Below are positions 10,151-30,194 of a stretch of DNA of 32,000 bases, piece after piece. This DNA is from Candidatus Saccharimonadota bacterium. Its GTDB lineage: Bacteria; Patescibacteriota; Gracilibacteria; BD1-5; UBA6164. The notes under the pieces are model-generated. The model worked only from the letters and a program-made list of their open reading frames with translations, was not told the DNA's origin and searched no databases. How positions within the stretch are numbered: the stretch's first letter is position 1; each line of letters opens with the position of its first letter. The DNA is taken from contig OY782392.1 in the NCBI GenBank assembly GCA_963677765.1, positions 180,001 to 212,000 on the forward strand, given 5' to 3'. The translations under genes and the position numbers were made by a program.

Positions 10151-11278
10151 TTATTGCAAATTATTATTTATATTTAAGGCTGCAACATATCAACTAGACC
10201 AAGCCCATTGAAGATTAAATCATCAAGTTTTACCTGTAACATCAACTACTTCTCATATAAAATATAATCATTGATATTTTTTAGATTGCATATGATTATC
10301 CAACTCATCTGTATCTATTCAAGCTCAAGTAGCTTTTGCTTCTTTCCAGCTTCTCCAATTTTGTAATTCTAAATTAACATAATTATTTTCTTCATTTAAA
10401 TCAAAAAATTTTATCAATCTTTTAGGAGTATTATCTATATCAAATTCTAAATCCAAAGATAGATTATTAATTATATATTTTTCAAAATCATCTTCTTTTA
10501 ATTTTATAGAATTTAGATACTCTCATATAGAGTTTGATAAATTATGAACTATAGGTCAACTAATACCAAAATGCGTAAAAAGCATTGGTCAGTTTTCAAA
10601 ATATATAGATTTTTTATTATTTTTATCTATTAATTTCATTTTTAAATTACAACTAACTCAACTAACTTCGCTTAAATCTTTTTTAGTAGCCATTCAACAA
10701 AGAGTCCTATAAGGTGGGATTATCTTTAATCATAAATTAGATGCTATATTATAGCCTTCTCCTGTAGTTCAAATATGAGAAAAACTTTTTCATCAACTAG
10801 ATATTATAACATTTTTAGATATATATTTTTTTCATCATTCTATAGAAATTTCATAATTTCAATCTTCTAATAATACAACATTTTTTACATCTTGATTTAT
10901 TTTTAGTTCACAATTATTTTTTCTAGTATTATCAAGTAAACAATTTAATAATTCCTTACTATCTCAACTTTCTAAAATAAGTCTAGACCTATCTTCTTCT
11001 ACTATATTTATTCAATTTTCAGCAAAAAAACTCATTATATCCCAATTTGTATAACGAGAAAAAATACTATGAAGAAATTTTTTATTTTGAGTAAAATAAT
11101 CTCTTACAGGTTCTATATCCATATTTGAAACATTAGCTCTTTCTCAACCAGAAAGCAACACCTTCATACCTGGTTTAGCTGTTTTTTCAAGGATTAATTT
11201 TTTATATTTTTTATCTAAGTTAATTCAAGCAAATAATCATGCAGCTCATGCTCAAACTATAACAACATCATAAATCAT
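10151..11278 (-). CDS. HI0933/YhiN-family FAD-dependent oxidoreductase
   Basis: 375 aa. MIYDVVIVGAGAAGLFAGINL...KVLLSGGERANVSN...IISSGGKSFSHIGTTGEGYNIA...LFTHFGISGP...[29 protein letters not shown]. Dinucleotide-binding GxGxxG, with both Gly of GAGAAG encoded by TGA. Confidence 0.85.
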
Positions 11279-21678: not shown

Positions 21679-22296
21679 ATGGAAAACAAACAAATCTTTG
21701 ATATAATAGTAAAATCAAATATTGTAAACTTAGAAAAAGTACTAAAAAATATAAAAAATGATAAACAAAAAGAACAAATAAAAAATATGTTTGAGAAGCA
21801 TATGCAAGAAATAGCAAAATATTGTATAGAAAACTTTTATAACAAAGACTTATTAGATGAAAAATTTATAAAATGACTACACTTAATTCATTATCCAAAA
21901 TGATATATAGAAAAACAAAAAACTATATCTTGAGATGCAGAAATAGTTACAATGATACCATGAAATTATAAAACATTAAAAAATTTTGACTGGGTATTAG
22001 TAAAAGATGTAAAAGAAGAAATGAATAAATTAATAAATAATTATAATTTATCGGATAAAAAAGAAGATGATATTTATGATTTTTTATTAAACTTTTTAAG
22101 AATACATCCTTTTTGAAACTGAAATGCAAGAGTATTATCTATAATAGTAGATTTGATGCTTATTAAAAATAATTATCCTGAGTTAAACTTTAATTTAAAA
22201 CAATACAAAGATAAGGAAAATATAAAAAATTTGATTGTAGAATGAATTAAAGAAAGAAATCATAAAGAAATAATAAAAAAAATAAAAGAGCTTTAA
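21679..22296 (+). CDS. Fic/DOC family protein with degenerate active-site motif
   Basis: 205 aa. Motif IHPFGNGNARVLS at 22105-22131 (canonical HxFx[D/E]GNGRxxR); both Gly flanking the first Asn are TGA codons. Stop TAA 22294-22296. Confidence 0.78.
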
Positions 22297-22310: not shown

Positions 22311-24689
22311 TTAGAAGAAATCTTTAATAGTAACATTAAAGTTATTTGATAAAACGACATTATTATTTGGTTCTGTAAGTCTTAATCTATATGTATATGT
22401 AACATCAACATCATATTCTGGTCAACTTCAACTTATATGAACTAATCTATTTCAATCAAGTTGAACTTCTCAAGAAATAGGACCTCAACTAACTGTTTCT
22501 AAAACTATTGTAGAACCTACTTTATAATTACTTATAAGAGTAGTAACATCAGCTATTAATTCTGTTTGAGTTCATGATCATTCATTAGTTTCAAAATTTC
22601 AAATAGCCATCCAACTAGCAGCAACTGCTTCTACTTCATAGTTAACTGTAATTGCAGTACTATCTAAATTACCATCATTTGCAACAACTTGAAAACTACC
22701 ACTTTGTATAGTATTTGTAGTTCATGATAATGTACCATTTGAGTTAAATGTTGTTCATGCTGGTATAGTTCATGATACAACTCTATATGTTAAACTGTTT
22801 CATTCTGCATCTGTTGATGAAAATGTTAGGCTCATTGCATCTCATACAGTAACTGTTGAATCTCCACTAACATTTGGTTGAGTTGGTGCTGTATTAACAA
22901 CAGGAGCTGCTTCTACTTCATAGTTAACTGTAATTGCAGTACTATCTAAATTACCATCATTTGCAACAACTTGAAAACTACCACTTTGTACAGTATTTGT
23001 AGTTCATGATAATGTACCATTTGAGTTAAATGTTGTTCATGCTGGTATAGTTCATGATACAACTCTATATGTTAAACTGTTTCATTCTGCATCTGTTGAT
23101 GAAAATGTTAGGTTCATTGCATCTCATACAGTAACTGTTGAATCCCCACTAACATTTGGTTGAGTTGGTGCTGTATTAGCTCATTCTAATCATGAAATAG
23201 CTGATTGTAAGTTTGTATTAGCTTGATCAACTTGAGCTTGACTAGAATTAGAGTCATCTCTAATTTGTATAGCATTAGTTAAAGCTGTTTGAAGATTAGA
23301 CCAACTAGAAGTAGTATAATCTGATTGATTTAATCATTGAGCTGTTGTTATAGTAGAATTCAAAGTTGAAAAATCAGCAACTTCTGATAATTGGTCTATA
23401 GCAGAATTTAAGTTATTAAAAGCTGTTTTAACTTGCTCCAAAGTTGAATTATCATCATTATTAACAATTATAGCAGCAGCTAATGCTGAAGATAAAGCTG
23501 CCCAACTACTAGAAGTATAATCATTACTATCTAAAGATCATACTTCATTTATTTTTGAGTTAAGTGCTGATTTATCCAAGATAAATTCAGTTGTTACTTT
23601 TGTTTCTTTTTGTCAGTATAAAGTAGACATAGCTTCTCTTGCTCAAGTAGTATGAGTAAGATTTAGATGATTATATTTTCTAGAATTAGTATATGATTTT
23701 AATCCTGGAGTATAAGTAAATGTAAGCATAAATCTATTATCATCCATAGAGCTAGAGTTTACTCTTTCATAAGCTGCTCAAACAGATAATCAATCACTAA
23801 TAATATAATCTACTTTTCATCTATATATTTCTGAATCAAATGAATCACCATCTAATCTAGAATATTCTATACTAGGTCTAATTTTTCATCAATTATAAGT
23901 ATATCAAAATCAATAATTATTAGCTCAATTTCAAATATTAGTATGTCAAAAATTAGCATCAAAACTACTATTTCAATAATCATATTCAAAAGTAAATCAT
24001 GCAGATCTAGTATCTTCTCATTCAAAACTAGTAGTAGTTGTAGTTATTTCTTTTCCCCATTCAACATCTCTTGAAACTTGAGTAACTGATAAAGTTTTAG
24101 AGTCAGTAAAAGTTGCATTAGCATATACTCAAGCTCTAAAATTTTCTACTATATTTGAAAAATCTTTTAAAAATTCAGCTCAAACATATTTTTGACCAAT
24201 ATCTACTCATTCAAAATCTTGTTTTAAGTATCATGCAGTAGCTTTTGCTGAAAAATCAACTCATTTATATAATCAAGTAACTAAATATGATTGTCTTTCA
24301 TCTCAAAAATTAGTTGTGATTAATGTTCCCCATTTTTCTCATACATTTGCATATTCTATAGATGTAACTAATCACATTGATTCTGAATCTTGTAATCAAA
24401 TTTCTAATCTAGAGTTTTGATTAGAAATTTGTAAATTTCAGCTTTGAGTATCAGGATTTCAATTTAATACAATATTTGCTTTATTTGTATCAGTATATGA
24501 TGGAGAGCCTAAATCTGGTAAATTTTTAGTTGAAACTCTAGGAGGAGTTAAATCGTCATGGTTAACAGACATTACATCATTAACTCTATTACTTGTAGAA
24601 GCACATCATTGCATTAATGCTCATGCTACAAATAATGCAGTTCAATTTTTATAAATTTTTGAAGCTAAAGAATTAGACGAATTTTTCAT
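22311..24689 (-). CDS. Surface lipoprotein-like adhesin: N-terminal beta-rich domain, 2 FIVAR-like repeats, 2 Ig-like (He_PIG/cadherin-like) repeats, C-terminal domain
   Basis: 792 aa. N-term MKNSSNSLASKIYKNGTALFVAGALMQGCASTS (signal peptide with a lipobox-like LMQG-C). Two repeats of the type DYTSSSWAALSSALAAA...LEQVKTAFNNLNSAIDQL (FIVAR-like). Two 94-aa repeats ...LTYRVVSGTIPAGTTFNSNGTLSGTTNTIQSGSFQVVANDGNLDSTAITVNYEV.... Length is an exact multiple of 3. Stop TAA (plus tta 22311-22313). Confidence 0.85.
22625..23178. repeat. Near-identical 282-bp tandem duplication inside the adhesin gene
   Basis: 22625-22896 and 22907-23178 are identical except for 3 transitions, by direct visual alignment of the printed lines. 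The period of 282 bp (94 codons) keeps the reading frame. Confidence 0.95.
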
Positions 24690-26546: not shown

Positions 26547-28709
26547 TTATGAATGTACAACTTCAAAGTTTAATCTTAATAAAACTTCATCAGCTTCAAT
26601 TAATTTAACTCTAATATTATCTCAAAGAGTATATTTATTACCTAATTTATCTCTATGAGTTTGCATTTTTTCATCAAAATTTGAAGATTCAACTTCAACA
26701 AAACCTTCTGCAGTATCAGGTAAAGCAACAAAGAATCATTTTGAAATTACTCATGTAATTACTCAGTCAAATTCTTCACCTACTTTATTTTTATAATATT
26801 TAACCAAGAAGTAATCTCTAACTTTGTATTCAAGTTTTTCACTCATTCTTTCTCTTTCACTACATTGTTTAGAAACTTTTGATAATATAGAACCATAATG
26901 ATTTTGTCTTTTTGCATCAAGTTTTTGATTTAGATATTCTTTTATAATTCTATGTATTTGTAAATCAGGATATCTTCTAATTGGAGAAGTAAAATGACTA
27001 TAAAATTGTAAACCTAATCAAAAATGACCAAAATTTATATGAGAGTAACTAGCTTGAGTCAAAGTTCTCAGAGTCATTCTTTCTAAAAATCTTCTTTTAG
27101 CATCATCTAAATCTTTGTATTTATCTAATAATTGACCGAATTCAACAGTATTAGCCTCATCAAATCTAAATTTTATACCAAATAATTGTAATTTATCTTG
27201 TAAATCTAAAATATCATTTTCTTTTGGTTTTTCATGTATTCTATAAACAAATGGGAATTGAGACATCTCTTTGGCAACAGCTTCATTTGCTGATACCATA
27301 AATACTTCAATTAATTTATTTGAGTTATATTTTGGATATTCTTTTACTCAGATTGGATCACCATTTTCATCAAATTCAACAACAGTTTCTGGGAAATCAA
27401 AATCAAGAGTACCAGTTTTTTCTCTATGCTTCATGATTAATTCTTTTAAATCATTAGCATCTTTAATTGTATCTAATAATTGTTTAGTAGCTTCTCATCT
27501 AAACATTAATTCATCTCAAACATTTACATGTCTTTTTTCAATTTCATCTACATCTTTATAAGTTAATCTAAAATCACTTTTAATAACAGATTCATATAGT
27601 TTTGATTTTATTAAATGACCAGTTTTACCTCAAATAGTCATTTCACAAGTCATTGTTAATTTGTCTGTATAAGGATTTAGACTACAAAGATTATTAGATA
27701 ATTTTTCTGGTAACATAGGTATAACTCTATCAGCCAAATAGATAGAAGTACCTCTTTCTAATGCCTCTTTATCTAAAGCAGATCTTTCAGTTACATAATT
27801 AGTAACATCAGCTATATGAACATAAAGTTTATAATCTCAGTTATCCATTTTTTCTAAAGAGATTGCATCATCTAAGTCCTTTGCATCAGCACCATCAATA
27901 GTAAATGTAAATAAATCTCTAAAATCTTTTCTTCTAGATATTTCATTTTTATCTACATTTTCTGAAATTCAAGATAATTGTTCTTGAACATCGTCTCAAA
28001 AAGTAATTCTAGCACCTCATTCAACAGCCAAAGTTAAGATTTCTTCTTCTCTTTTATCTAAACTACCTTTGCTAGAAATAATTTCTTTAATAACTCATTC
28101 TGGATTTTTCTTAGACCACTTCGTAATTTCTACTCAAACTATATCTCAAGAATGAGCTCACATTGCATTAGTACTAGCAACAAATATATCATTTTTGAGA
28201 TTTTTATCTTTTGGAATAACAAATCAAAAATTATTTTTACCAGTTTTATATGTTCAAACAACCAATCATTTTTTTCTTTCAATTACTCTAACTATTTCTG
28301 CTTCTTCTTTTCATTTAAAAACTTTTACACTAGCTTCAACTAAATCTCAGTCCATAGCTGTTTGTTTGTTTCTAGAAAAAACAAAATATCATTTTTTTTC
28401 TTTTCATTCAGGAGTTTCGATTATAGTATCAACAAAACCAAAATCTCAATTTCCTTGAGAGTAAGTTCATACTATATTTGTTTCATTTAATTTATGTTCA
28501 CTTGATTCTTTTAATACACTAATAATTTTAGCTTCTTTACTTTTTCATCATTTTTTATCTAAAACTTCAACTTCAACTAAGTCTCAGTTTGAAGCTCAAT
28601 TAATATTTGGTCCAGCTATGAAGAAATCACTGCTATGAAGCGATTTATCTGTAGGAACAACAAAACCATAACCGTCTTGTTCTTGAAAAACTCATACTGC
28701 TTTTTCCAT
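26547..28709 (-). CDS. rnr: Ribonuclease R with three N-terminal OB/cold-shock-like modules
   Basis: 720 aa. RNB core ...[21 protein letters not shown]...[11 protein letters not shown]...[24 protein letters not shown]...[28 protein letters not shown].... C-terminal S1-like [28 protein letters not shown]. The N-terminus carries three G-x-F/Y...GFGFV...GDLVE modules. Confidence 0.93.
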
Positions 28710-28777
28710 TTGTTTTTGTTTAAAAAATATATTTATAATAATTGTAACATATAAAACAAAAAAATAAAAACAAAAGT

Positions 28778-28805
28778 TTGCAAAAAGATTGACTTTTTAT
28801 ATAAT
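28778..28805 (+). promoter_or_regulatory. Candidate promoter of the microhelix/tRNA-Leu transcript
   Basis: TTGCAA (28778-28783), 16 nt, TATAAT (28800-28805). Lies 15 nt upstream of the GGGGCCG hairpin and 49 nt upstream of tRNA-Leu. Confidence 0.4.
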
Positions 28806-28820
28806 AGCATCACTCTTTAT

Positions 28821-28848
28821 GGGGCCGTGTTAATTTGCGGCTCCACCA
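28821..28848 (+). ncRNA. tRNA-Ala/tmRNA-like acceptor microhelix ending in ACCA (function unknown)
   Basis: GGGGCCG-tgttaatttg-CGGCTCC-ACCA. The 7-bp stem has a G.U pair at the third position (as G3:U70), then single-stranded A + CCA. It is a GC-rich island in an AT-rich spacer, 6 nt upstream of tRNA-Leu. No D, anticodon or T arms. Confidence 0.35.
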
Positions 28849-28854
28849 TATTAA

Positions 28855-28939
28855 GCCCAGATGATGGAATTGGTAGACATGGGGGACTCAAAATCCCCTG
28901 CTTTCGAGCGTAAGGGTTCAAGTCCCTTTCTGGGTACCA
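28855..28939 (+). tRNA. tRNA-Leu (anticodon CAA), class II, CCA encoded
   Basis: Acceptor GCCCAGA/TCTGGGT (G1.U72). Anticodon stem GGGGA/TCCCC with loop CTCAAAA (CAA at 28889-28891). Long variable arm GCT-ttcg-AGC. T arm AAGGG-TTCAAGT-CCCTT. Discriminator A, then CCA. Confidence 0.92.
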
Positions 28940-29199
28940 TAAAAGTTATTAAATATTATTTAGTTTTCTAGATTGTATTTGATAGCTTTTATTTTTTGGA
29001 CTTGAATAGAGAAAAGGAATCATTAAATGCAAAAATTTTTACGATGAATAAGAGTAAAATATTTTTAGTATTTAATAGATTATCTTTCGAATGTCCGACC
29101 CAAAGGGCGACAAGTCCCTTTCTCTAGTACCATAAAAGTTATTAAATATTATTTAGTTTTCTAGATTATATTTGATAGCTTTTATTTTTTGGACTTGAA
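28919..29199. repeat. Direct duplication (~88 nt x2, period ~193 nt) of the tRNA-Leu 3' end plus 67 nt of downstream spacer
   Basis: 28919-29006 versus 29111-29199: CAAGTCCCTTTCT...ACCATAAAAGTTATTAAATATTATTTAGTTTTCTAGATT[G/A]TATTTGATAGCTTTTATTTTTTGGACTTGAA. They differ only in the acceptor 3' strand (CTGGGT vs CTCTAGT) and at one spacer base. Confidence 0.9.
29103..29132 (+). pseudogene. Degenerate 3' fragment of tRNA-Leu (T arm + acceptor 3' strand + CCA)
   Basis: AAAGGG-CGACAAGT-CCCTT-TCTCTAGT-ACCA. It retains the T stem and CCA, but the T loop is 8 nt and altered. Upstream CTTTCGA echoes the variable arm. No matching 5' half could be folded. Confidence 0.5.
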
Positions 29200-29216: not shown

Positions 29217-29256
29217 TAAAAAGTAAAAGAGAGAGTTTTTTAGAAACTCTCTCTTA
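29217..29256 (-). terminator. Intrinsic terminator of the 71-aa ORF
   Basis: AAGAGAGAGTTT (29227-29238) / AAACTCTCTCTT (29244-29255), a 12-bp stem. TTTACTTTTT follows on the minus strand. Confidence 0.7.
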
Positions 29257-29270
29257 ATTTTTCTCCTTTT

Positions 29271-29486
29271 TTATGCGTATGCCCTGGCAATCATATTAAG
29301 TTGTTTGGTGTCAGAGCTAGAGTAAGTAGTGACATAATCACTGCTTGCTTTTGCCATTTGCTCACTTTCAAGCTCACCATCAGAAACAGCCTTCTGAATG
29401 AACTTGAAAACCTTTGCTCTGGCTTTTCTAGCCGATTTTTTAACCGCTTTTCGTCGATCTCCGTGCTCCAAACTATTAAGTGACAT
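29271..29486 (-). CDS. Hypothetical 71-aa protein, compositionally foreign, readable in both code 11 and code 25
   Basis: Intact in the standard-code track. ATG 29486 is preceded by AAGGAGGTG (plus cacctcctt 29491-29499). No in-frame TGA. GC-richer than its flanks. TAA stop. Basic N-half (DRRKAVKKSARKARAKVFKF), acidic/Ser-rich C-half. Family not recognised. Confidence 0.68.
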   Translation of the reverse strand: MSLNSLEHGDRRKAVKKSARKARAKVFKFIQKAVSDGELESEQMAKASSDYVTTYSSSDTKQLNMIARAYA

Positions 29487-29579: not shown

Positions 29580-30194
29580 TTAATCTAAGATTTTTACTAC
29601 AAAACCTTCTGGATTTTTTCATCATTTTTTTATAATTTTTGCTTCAACTATATCTCAATCTCTAGCTCAATTTTTTCTTGGACCTGGAATAAAAACATCA
29701 TTATTAGTTCATTCATCTGGTATAACAAAACCAAATCTATCACTATCTTTGAATCTACCTACTACTGTTTCAAATTCGTCTTGAAATATTTTAACAACAA
29801 CAGCTTCTTTTTTTCATTTGAATTCTACTATTTGAGCTTTTACTTTATCTCAATCTTTTGCTCAATTTTTTTTGTTTCAATATACAAAATAACCTTTTTC
29901 TAATCATTCTACATCAATAAATCAAAAATTACCATCTCAAGAACTATATATTCATTCTACAAATTCTTGCTTTATGGGTGCTTCTTTTCAAAAAACTCTA
30001 ACAATTTTTACTTCAGGTTTTTTTCATTTTGTTTTAATTTCTACTCACTCTACCCTATCTCAATCTTCTGCTAATCAAAAATTATTTTTGTTTACATAAA
30101 AATCTCATCAATAGTATTCTCTATCTTCTGGAATTAAAAAACCAAAATTAGATCATCCTTGAAATTTTCAAACTATTTTATCATTATTTTTCAT
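29580..30194 (-). CDS. Stand-alone triple OB-fold (RNase R N-terminal cold-shock-like) repeat protein
   Basis: 204 aa. Three modules: IVGKFQGGSNFGFLIPED...FGLAEDGDRVEGVEI...; VEGIYSSGDGNFGFIDVEG...NGAKDGDKVKAQIVEF...; VVGRFKDSDRFGFVIPDEG...NGARDGDIVEAKIIKK.... No nuclease domain. Frame checked triplet by triplet. Confidence 0.8.

Follow-up and report, generated by a model that had tools for sequence, protein, structure and literature searches.

Which role does the acceptor end of a tRNA-Ala play when it stands, without the rest of the molecule, in front of a tRNA-Leu gene? This question is raised by a GC-rich hairpin at positions 28821-28848 of a 32,000-nucleotide (nt) stretch of contig OY782392.1 (assembly GCA_963677765.1, Candidatus Saccharimonadota bacterium); in the following, the window denotes this whole stretch. 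The hairpin is located in the leader of the gene for tRNA-Leu(CAA), and we refer to it as the microhelix. This mimic of the tRNA-Ala acceptor stem is real, conserved and previously undescribed, and it constitutes a selected yet dispensable RNA-level element, which is neither a coincidence nor a neutral relic. The evidence for a functional RNA is good, and charging by alanyl-tRNA synthetase (AlaRS) is plausible, judging from the sequence features. The locus consists of the following features:

28778-28805 (+), sigma-70-type promoter, TTGCAA (28778-28783)-N16-TATAAT (28800-28805), 10/12 matches in the promoter scan
28806-28820 (+), 5' leader with a conserved CACTyTTTAT block and U at position -1 of the hairpin; transcription would start near 28812-28813
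28821-28828 (+), 5' strand of the microhelix (G1 G2 G3 G4 C5 C6 G7 U8), positions 1-6 invariant in nine distinct sequences
28829-28836 (+), loop GUUAAUUU, which differs between relatives in both length and sequence
28837-28844 (+), 3' strand of the microhelix (G65 C66 G67 G68 C69 U70 C71 C72)
28845-28848 (+), encoded discriminator base A73 and CCA, single-stranded, invariant in all intact versions
28849-28854 (+), spacer UAUUAA between microhelix and tRNA-Leu, 6 nt in the window
28855-28939 (+), tRNA-Leu(CAA) with encoded CCA, called by ARAGORN and by the Rfam tRNA model (53.1 bits), presumably co-transcribed with the microhelix

The microhelix has the sequence GGGGCCGTGTTAATTTGCGGCTCCACCA and a length of 28 nt. 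Its strands are joined by the pairs G1-C72, G2-C71, G3·U70, G4-C69, C5-G68, C6-G67 and G7-C66, plus U8·G65, to which RNAfold adds G9·U64. The characteristic features of an acceptor stem, i.e. a 7-bp stem, a discriminator base and a 3' CCA, are all present, and the ACCA is single-stranded 3' of the helix and unpaired in every minimum free energy (MFE) fold computed. The MFE of the hairpin is -15.5 kcal/mol, a value equalled by one of 200 shuffles. The hairpin is far beyond chance expectation. The GC content of the window is 25.4%, that of the 28 nt is 0.61, which is tied for rank 1 among 31,973 windows of this size; no other hairpin on either strand of the 32 kb combines 7 bp with at least five G-C pairs. 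When the window was simulated with a first-order Markov model, 0/300 simulations contained a 7-bp stem with five or more G-C pairs followed by NCCA; after relaxing the threshold to at least three G-C pairs, a mean number of 0.07 such stems per window was observed. A previous reading of this DNA, for which only the letters had been available (the sequence-only reading), had reported the sequence and the 7-bp acceptor pairing with G3:U70 and ACCA, which we confirm in every detail. It had also placed the element 15 nt past TTGCAA-N16-TATAAT and 6 nt before tRNA-Leu, on which promoter scan, ARAGORN and Rfam agree, and had named it the most GC-rich spot of the spacer, in line with its top rank in the whole window.

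Known RNA families do not account for the element. ARAGORN and Rfam called only the tRNA-Leu at 28855-28939 and nothing at 28821-28848, even at E<=10; no Rfam family matched the hairpin, neither when the whole window was searched at the gathering threshold nor when 28760-28860 was searched permissively. ARAGORN identified no transfer-messenger RNA (tmRNA) in the window or the related loci, and there was no match to an Rfam tmRNA family either. For 71 related loci of low GC content, ARAGORN reported exclusively tRNAs for Leu, Arg, Asn and Val, and no tRNA-Ala or tmRNA.

In order to follow the element through related genomes, orthologous tRNA-Leu(CAA) loci were compiled from three sources. The upstream neighbour of tRNA-Leu, divergent from it, is the gene for RNase R (26547-28709, reverse strand), whose closest homologues are annotated as Candidatus Gracilibacteria; the first source were contigs encoding RNase R homologues with 63-93% identity. 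The second was a scan of species-representative genomes anchored on the anticodon arm of tRNA-Leu; the resulting counts for Gracilibacteria are lower bounds, and the pattern also matched Treponema, Actinomycetes and Saccharibacteria. The third was a scan of metagenomes, for which a tRNA-Leu pattern specific to this family served as anchor. Both scans are unbiased as to the hairpin, because the tRNA anchors carry no leader information. The leaders, which are labelled L001, L004 and so on where they have to be distinguished, fall into three states: intact, decayed and absent. Intact microhelices were found in at least nine distinct versions in at least ten lineages, down to about 71% RNase R identity, and all of them are located 3' of the promoter and the CACTyTTTAT block. 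These versions, each followed by ACCA, are:

window, L001-3 and L145: GGGGCCG-U-GUUAAUUU-G-CGGCUCC
L004 and L042: GGGGCCG-U-UCAC-G-CGGCUCC
L020 and L146: GGGGCCG-U-UAAC-G-CGGCUCC
L267: GGGGCCG-U-UUAC-G-CGGCUCC
L010 and L142: GGGGCCC-U-UUAC-G-GGGCUCC
L138: GGGGCCC-U-UCAC-G-GGGCUCC
L082: GGGGCCC-C-UUAC-G-GGGCUCC
L005: GGGGCC-U-CCA...UGG-GGCUCC
L021: GGGGCC-A-CCA...UGG-GGCUCC

The size of the natural versions ranges from 24 to 29 nt; 6/10 are exactly 24 nt long, and these keep C71 and C72. The decayed copies are:

L014: GAGGAAGAUUUAAAGGCUCCAAUA (GAGGAAG...GGCTCCAATA)
L007: GGGGGUAGCUAAUAAAGCUAAACCA
L128: GGGAUCGCUAAUAUGGCUCAACCA
L139: GGAGCAGCUCAUAUAGCUCAACCA

The element is absent from L006/L041, L120/L136/L144, L140 and L106 as well as from the outgroup (L012/L101 and L013/L016); in L006, L120 and L136 it was lost by deletion. 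A neighbour-joining tree of RNase R has intact copies in each of the three ingroup subclades and an outgroup without the element. This tree requires at least four independent losses, a count which depends on a rough distance tree. With a covariance model derived from the intact versions, orthologous sites scored 39-50 bits and two decayed sites 12-14 bits. Neither a regular expression nor this model detected further copies in about 0.5 Mb of related loci of low GC content plus the window. The microhelix is a single-copy, locus-specific element, which is orthologous across one family of the Gracilibacteria.

The element is linked to tRNA-Leu(CAA) and its promoter rather than to the neighbouring protein gene. 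It lies on the side of the tRNA-Leu transcript in every lineage which carries it, and it is intact where the upstream gene is a different one, not coding for RNase R (L138, L082, L020/L146). Both promoter hexamers are identical in 8/8 RNase R-linked lineages with the element. In the window, 15 nt lie between the -10 box and G1, a distance that applies to 7/8 of these lineages; in L138 and L082, the hairpin begins 29 nt from the -10 box. The motif CACTT 3' of the -10 box is also found in lineages without hairpin. The distance to the tRNA is 3, 6, 13, 21 or 128-135 nt in the relatives; the helix is unchanged throughout, and it is intact despite the 128-135 nt inserted before the tRNA in L020, L042 and L021. 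The hairpin has the sequence features of a bacterial RNase P substrate, namely no fewer than 7 bp of helix with RCCA 3' of it, a single-stranded 5' leader and the preferred U-1 (in 9/10 lineages), and cleavage is predicted.

Some observations on this locus are reported here for their own sake. A conserved AT-rich insertion of about 135 nt (…aaaatttttcaaaaacgataaattagaggaagat…) lies between the microhelix or its decayed remnant and tRNA-Leu in L020, L042, L007, L139, L146 and L126, which belong to one subclade. Two changes that compensate for each other distinguish the variable arm of tRNA-Leu (28899-28909) from that of L001, a strain of 97.5% identity (gctttcgagcg versus gccttcgggcg). The 145-nt intergenic region differs from that of L001 by a single substitution, although 14% of the four-fold degenerate sites of RNase R differ.

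How the element varies indicates what is being preserved. Pairs were counted in a structural alignment of the nine distinct intact sequences, to which L267 is additional. Standard pairs occupy 98.6% of the alignment cells, compared with 35-63% if the 3' strand is slid. Pairs 1-6 are identical throughout, and G3·U70 is present in 9/9 distinct sequences and also in L267. Position 7 of the 5' strand is G, C, U or A and position 8 is U or C; accordingly, pair 7:66 is GC in four cases, CG in three, UG in one and another combination in one, and pair 8:65 is UG in six and CG in three. The loop length varies between 4 and 10 nt. The mean pairwise identity of the segments is as follows:

positions 1-6, 67-72 and ACCA: 100%
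-10 box to G1: 74%
promoter spacer, between the two hexamers: 64%
inner part, position 7 to 66: 38%

Four-fold degenerate sites in the neighbouring gene for RNase R provided a neutral yardstick. In all but the closest strain, their identity is 0.53-0.63, which corresponds to saturation for this composition, and G/C at third positions of the window is retained at 0-33% of the 2-4 informative sites per comparison. Despite this AT pressure and the saturated sites, 14 G/C stem positions and the CCA are identical in ten lineages, which requires strong purifying selection. The decayed copies are an internal control showing what the loss of constraint looks like: their differences are mostly exchanges of G/C by A/T, C72A among them, and their fold energies are -1 to -8.8 kcal/mol, compared with -14.7 to -17.7 kcal/mol and a free ACCA for the intact ones. 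The wobble pair G·U is never replaced by G-C or A-U in intact copies. Because this invariant pair would be an A/C mismatch on the opposite strand, the constraint acts on the RNA of the forward strand; a binding site in duplex DNA is disfavoured, because the spacing of the arms ranges from 4 to 10 nt. According to the aligned sequences, the constraint concerns the sequence itself in the six pairs next to the 3' end and only the helix in pairs 7 and 8. This pattern matches the way in which AlaRS reads tRNA-Ala and misfits a generic stabilising hairpin.

In tRNA-Ala of E. coli, A73 and the neighbouring pairs contribute to identity beside G3·U70. Besides the wobble pair, the microhelix invariably contains A73, G1-C72, G2-C71, G4-C69 and a free CCA. 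Among the determinants for AlaRS, G3·U70 is the major one (PMC9976931), and a 24-nt microhelix of tRNA-Ala, consisting of the acceptor stem and a 6-nt loop, works in vitro with AlaRS and the alanyl-transferase FemX, a peptidoglycan transferase which depends on C71 and C72 (PMC2175331). Our reading of the element, which we consider about evenly balanced as a whole, is that of an RNA kept by selection, which copies only the acceptor end of a bacterial tRNA-Ala, is co-transcribed with tRNA-Leu, released by tRNA processing and probably charged by AlaRS. It comprises an 8-bp helix with N7-N66 and U/C8-G65, a short loop, A73 and the encoded CCA, and it would behave like a tRNA gene without a body, being the first in an operon of two tRNA genes.

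We propose the following course of events. One promoter would give rise to a transcript consisting of a short leader, the hairpin, the spacer and tRNA-Leu; it would start about 7 nt past the -10 box, leaving a leader of about 8-9 nt before G1. Bacterial RNase P needs no more than a helix of 7 bp or longer with RCCA behind it, as model substrates and external guide sequences have made clear. The enzyme would cut 5' of tRNA-Leu (+1) and probably also between U-1 and G1 of the hairpin, and 3' exonucleases would trim the spacer back to the encoded CCA, thus freeing a stable microhelix of 24-29 nt. This would be recognised by AlaRS, because it holds the full alanine identity set, and would probably be charged. 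The product would be an alanine acceptor without anticodon, which is unable to decode. As the role of the charged or uncharged hairpin we consider most likely that it would serve as alanine donor for a non-ribosomal aminoacyl transfer or as decoy or buffer for readers of acceptor stems. Only tentatively do we go one step further and regard the element as the first natural, genomically encoded microhelix of 24-29 nt that can be aminoacylated, which might be charged by AlaRS through the "operational code" of the acceptor stem alone and function in these reduced CPR bacteria as a dedicated alanine carrier (for the synthesis of cell-wall side chains by a Fem-type transferase or for lipid alanylation) or as regulator or decoy of factors binding the tRNA-Ala acceptor stem.

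Several points weigh against this reading. The 6-nt trailer and ACCA form a 3' overhang of 10 nt, which enzymes of the RNase R type could degrade rather than trim, and no candidate enzyme consuming the charged hairpin emerged from the analysis. A true double change occurred at only one pair, and the lineages are related, so that the covariation statistics are weak; the shuffle control of covariation (3/500) is not usable as a probability. Repeated loss implies that the microhelix is not essential; because it was lost several times, we call it dispensable. Finally, pairs 1-6 might be invariant for a reason other than AlaRS, either because a different factor reads this sequence or because stability is selected for at a genomic GC content of 25%.

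The alternative that survives best is a purely cis-acting leader hairpin, which would stabilise the primary transcript or aid the maturation of tRNA-Leu(CAA), either by RNase P binding via RCCA or as a stop for 3' exonucleases, and which would never be charged and have no separate life. We deem this unlikely, though it deserves to be taken seriously. It would explain why the hairpin always occurs in the tRNA-Leu leader near the inferred 5' end and, in nearly all RNase R-linked lineages, at the same 15 nt from the -10 box. A stem followed by RCCA and preceded by U-1 is the recognition set of bacterial RNase P, and dispensability suits an accessory processing aid. However, the hairpin is just as intact 128-135 nt away from the tRNA (L020, L042, L021), where it could hardly guide the cleavage at +1, and 29 nt from the -10 box in L138 and L082; moreover, some 8-9 unpaired nucleotides at the 5' side make it a poor protector of the 5' end. 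Neither stability nor a role for RNase P needs the G3·U70 wobble or six invariant pairs, and a constraint on the helix only predicts covariation throughout, whereas covariation is seen at 7:66 and 8:65 only.

Clearly improbable is the view that the hairpin is a functionless remnant of a gene for tRNA-Ala or of ssrA, which lost its interior, e.g. during integration or excision, and was kept by inertia. Its resemblance to the acceptor stem of bacterial tRNA-Ala and tmRNA with encoded CCA would be explained at once, and the linkage of rnr, smpB and ssrA, which exists in other bacteria, would be in line with an ssrA origin next to an RNase R gene. The locus also carries scars of rearrangement, namely a direct repeat of 73 nt with a degenerate 3' half of tRNA-Leu; relatives have insertions with duplicated 5' ends of tRNA-Leu, and decay is seen in several lineages. 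It is precisely the decayed copies, however, that show how a neutral sequence appears at this locus, whereas in the intact ones, representing ten lineages and three subclades, the stem and CCA are identical at a distance at which neutral sites are saturated and free G/C is lost. A relic would not be expected to undergo a compensatory switch at 7:66, and no relative possesses an intact tRNA-Ala or tmRNA at this site. As a description of the present state, the relic is largely refuted; that the element arose long ago from a gene for tRNA-Ala or from ssrA is conceivable.

Even less probable, and in practice excluded, is an inverted repeat acting at the DNA level, as a recombination or attachment site or as the site of a dimeric regulator for the divergent promoters of tRNA-Leu and RNase R. 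Such repeats would fit a position between divergent genes amid integration scars, but an arm spacing of 4-10 nt misfits a fixed dimeric site, the repeat is imperfect exactly as a G·U pair in RNA allows and this imperfection is invariant, the unpaired ACCA is as conserved as the helix, and the element stays with tRNA-Leu where the RNase R gene is not its neighbour. A chance hairpin, for which nothing but the short length speaks, is practically ruled out by the 0/300 simulated windows and the conservation at the orthologous position in ten lineages.

The sequence-only reading had offered a functional mini-RNA, a plain deletion relic tied to the att-like duplication, and coincidence as options, and had suggested aligning orthologous tRNA-Leu leaders; this alignment revealed a helix and ACCA conserved in ten lineages, switches at 7:66 and an invariant G3·U70. 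The first option gains support from the conservation of helix and ACCA, the 7:66 switch and the invariant wobble pair, which at the same time exclude the third. The second is unsupported as the present state: relatives have neither an intact tRNA-Ala nor an intact ssrA here, the stem is invariant while synonymous sites are saturated, and unconstrained copies decay from GC to AT. Overall, the earlier interpretation is thus partly supported.

Other identities of the hairpin were considered and rejected. It is not an intrinsic terminator, as it is followed by ACCAUAUUAA and no U-run, and the terminator scan lists for this region only 29227-29255 and 29420-29434. A small open reading frame (ORF) encoding MGPC (ATG-GGG-CCG-TGT-TAA) ends at a stop codon without counterpart in L004, L010 and other relatives, where the loop lengths differ by non-multiples of 3. 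The sequence GTTCA, which could have been the remnant of a T-loop, is present in only some of the versions. Viral contigs were scanned with the pattern GGGGCC-N6-20-GGCTCCACCA, which gave at least 120 matches. Among the matches listed, nearly all are GC-rich coding DNA or consist of a terminator arm, a T-run and the 3' core of a tRNA or tmRNA, and those with extra pairs are about as numerous as expected by chance. The best viral match listed (L259:2043-2074) is a 12-bp hairpin with G3·U70 and a UUCG loop, in which ACCA is paired with an upstream UGGU and which has no tRNA nearby. We do not regard these matches as a family related to the microhelix. The viral motif GGGGCCTTTTCGTTTTCGGCTCCACCA was found in about 25 contigs or more (e.g. 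L150, L166, L171 and L219, with a GC content of 0.55-0.61), where it comprises terminator arm, T-run and tRNA/tmRNA 3' core; this region is probably an attP site.

The surroundings of the locus show features of their own. The direct repeat mentioned above (28934-29006 and 29127-29199, 99% identical) consists of the last 6 nt of tRNA-Leu and a 67-nt trailer. Its second copy is preceded by degenerate variable and T arms of a tRNA-Leu (29084-29133), and the repeat looks like an att-like scar of integration or excision. A strong bidirectional terminator hairpin is located 3' of it at 29227-29255. In the tRNA-Leu(CAA) leaders of other Gracilibacteria, we came across a second passenger, a structured element of about 100-115 nt with the core CCAUAC-NNNN-CGAG...GAG-NNNN-U-GCAYGG; upstream of it, some 22 nt from the start of tRNA-Leu are often duplicated. 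The passenger displays compensatory exchanges (ACUCC/GGAGU, ACUAC/GUAGU, ACCCC/GGGGU), matched no Rfam family, and could be a small mobile element or a new RNA class targeting the D-arm region. It was found at these loci:

L005:1129-1291 (-)
L021:4312-4474 (-)
L128:1094-1256 (-)
L013:3571-3876 (-), two tandem copies
L016:3712-3875 (-)
L094:4655-4842 (+)
L129:7708-7899 (-)

Within the window, TGA encodes glycine (genetic code 25): VVIVGAGAAGLFAG appears in the FAD-binding motif of the ORF 10151-11278 (-) under code 25 only, and calling ORFs with the standard table 11 breaks up every gene. Together with the low GC content and the RNase R homologues, this code places the source among the Gracilibacteria (BD1-5). 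A protein of 204 residues (29580-30194, reverse strand) consists solely of OB/cold-shock domains of the RNase R N-terminal type (three stretches each of Pfam OB_RNB and CSD2). In most relatives it is conserved between RadA and tRNA-Leu, as a separate protein paralogous to the N-terminus of RNase R. A predicted surface protein of 792 residues (22311-24689, reverse strand) contains two near-identical repeats of about 85 residues (NTAPTQPNVSGDSTVTVGDAM...VNYEVEA), and its gene adjoins that of a 205-residue protein with a Fic/DOC domain (21679-22296, forward strand).

For more than 30 years, microhelices with G3·U70 have been the textbook proof that a synthetase reads the acceptor stem without the anticodon, and they underpin the idea of an "operational RNA code" older than the anticodon; so far, they have been synthetic molecules only. 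Should the proposed alanine microhelix prove true, cells can make use of such a molecule, and this in a bacterium whose genome is minimal and in which a stop codon has been reassigned. It would offer a natural system for asking what an aminoacyl carrier without anticodon is used for, and it would represent a new class of tRNA mimics invisible to current annotation pipelines. Even if it were only cis-acting, the microhelix would represent a kind of element not reported before in tRNA leaders: our literature searches retrieved no report of a natural microhelix or of a tRNA-like hairpin in Patescibacteria, the candidate phyla radiation (CPR).

How does the element compare with known systems? With tRNA-Ala genes (RF00005), it shares an acceptor stem of the type GGGGC...GCUCC, G3·U70, the discriminator A and the encoded CCA, as well as the location in a tRNA operon with a tRNA-like spacing to the next gene. 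In contrast to these, it has no D, anticodon and T arms, cannot decode, and possesses only 8-10 nt between the acceptor strands. The tmRNA encoded by ssrA is a substrate of RNase P and is charged by AlaRS. It resembles the microhelix in that an alanine-type acceptor stem with G3·U70 and ACCA is placed on a non-decoding RNA, but the latter lacks T-arm, pseudoknots and tag reading frame and measures 24-29 nt versus about 350 nt. RNase P can act on hairpins that end in a CCA-like 3' tail, and 3'ETS-leuZ, the precursor of 4.5S RNA and the C4 RNA of the phages P1 and P7 are, like the microhelix in our proposal, small RNAs cut from a longer transcript by the tRNA-processing machinery. To our knowledge, none of these mimics an aminoacylation identity set; their functions are based on base-pairing or related to the signal recognition particle. 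The tRNA-like structures at the 3' ends of viral RNAs and mascRNA are also non-tRNA molecules that borrow tRNA enzymes (RNase P and the CCA enzyme, in the viral case also an aminoacyl-tRNA synthetase). They mimic the whole L-shape, whereas here only the acceptor helix is copied, and the Rfam model of mascRNA did not match the hairpin. Hipps and Schimmel reportedly expressed minihelices in E. coli in 1995. The closest counterparts are the synthetic microhelix-Ala and minihelix-Ala, known as AlaRS substrates (Francklyn and Schimmel 1989, as cited in PMC9976931): they agree with the element in the 7-8 bp of the tRNA-Ala acceptor stem, the short loop, G3·U70, A73, CCA and size. They are laboratory constructs, whereas the natural element is encoded in a genome, has a promoter context, is conserved across species and is, as far as its position tells, co-transcribed with a tRNA.

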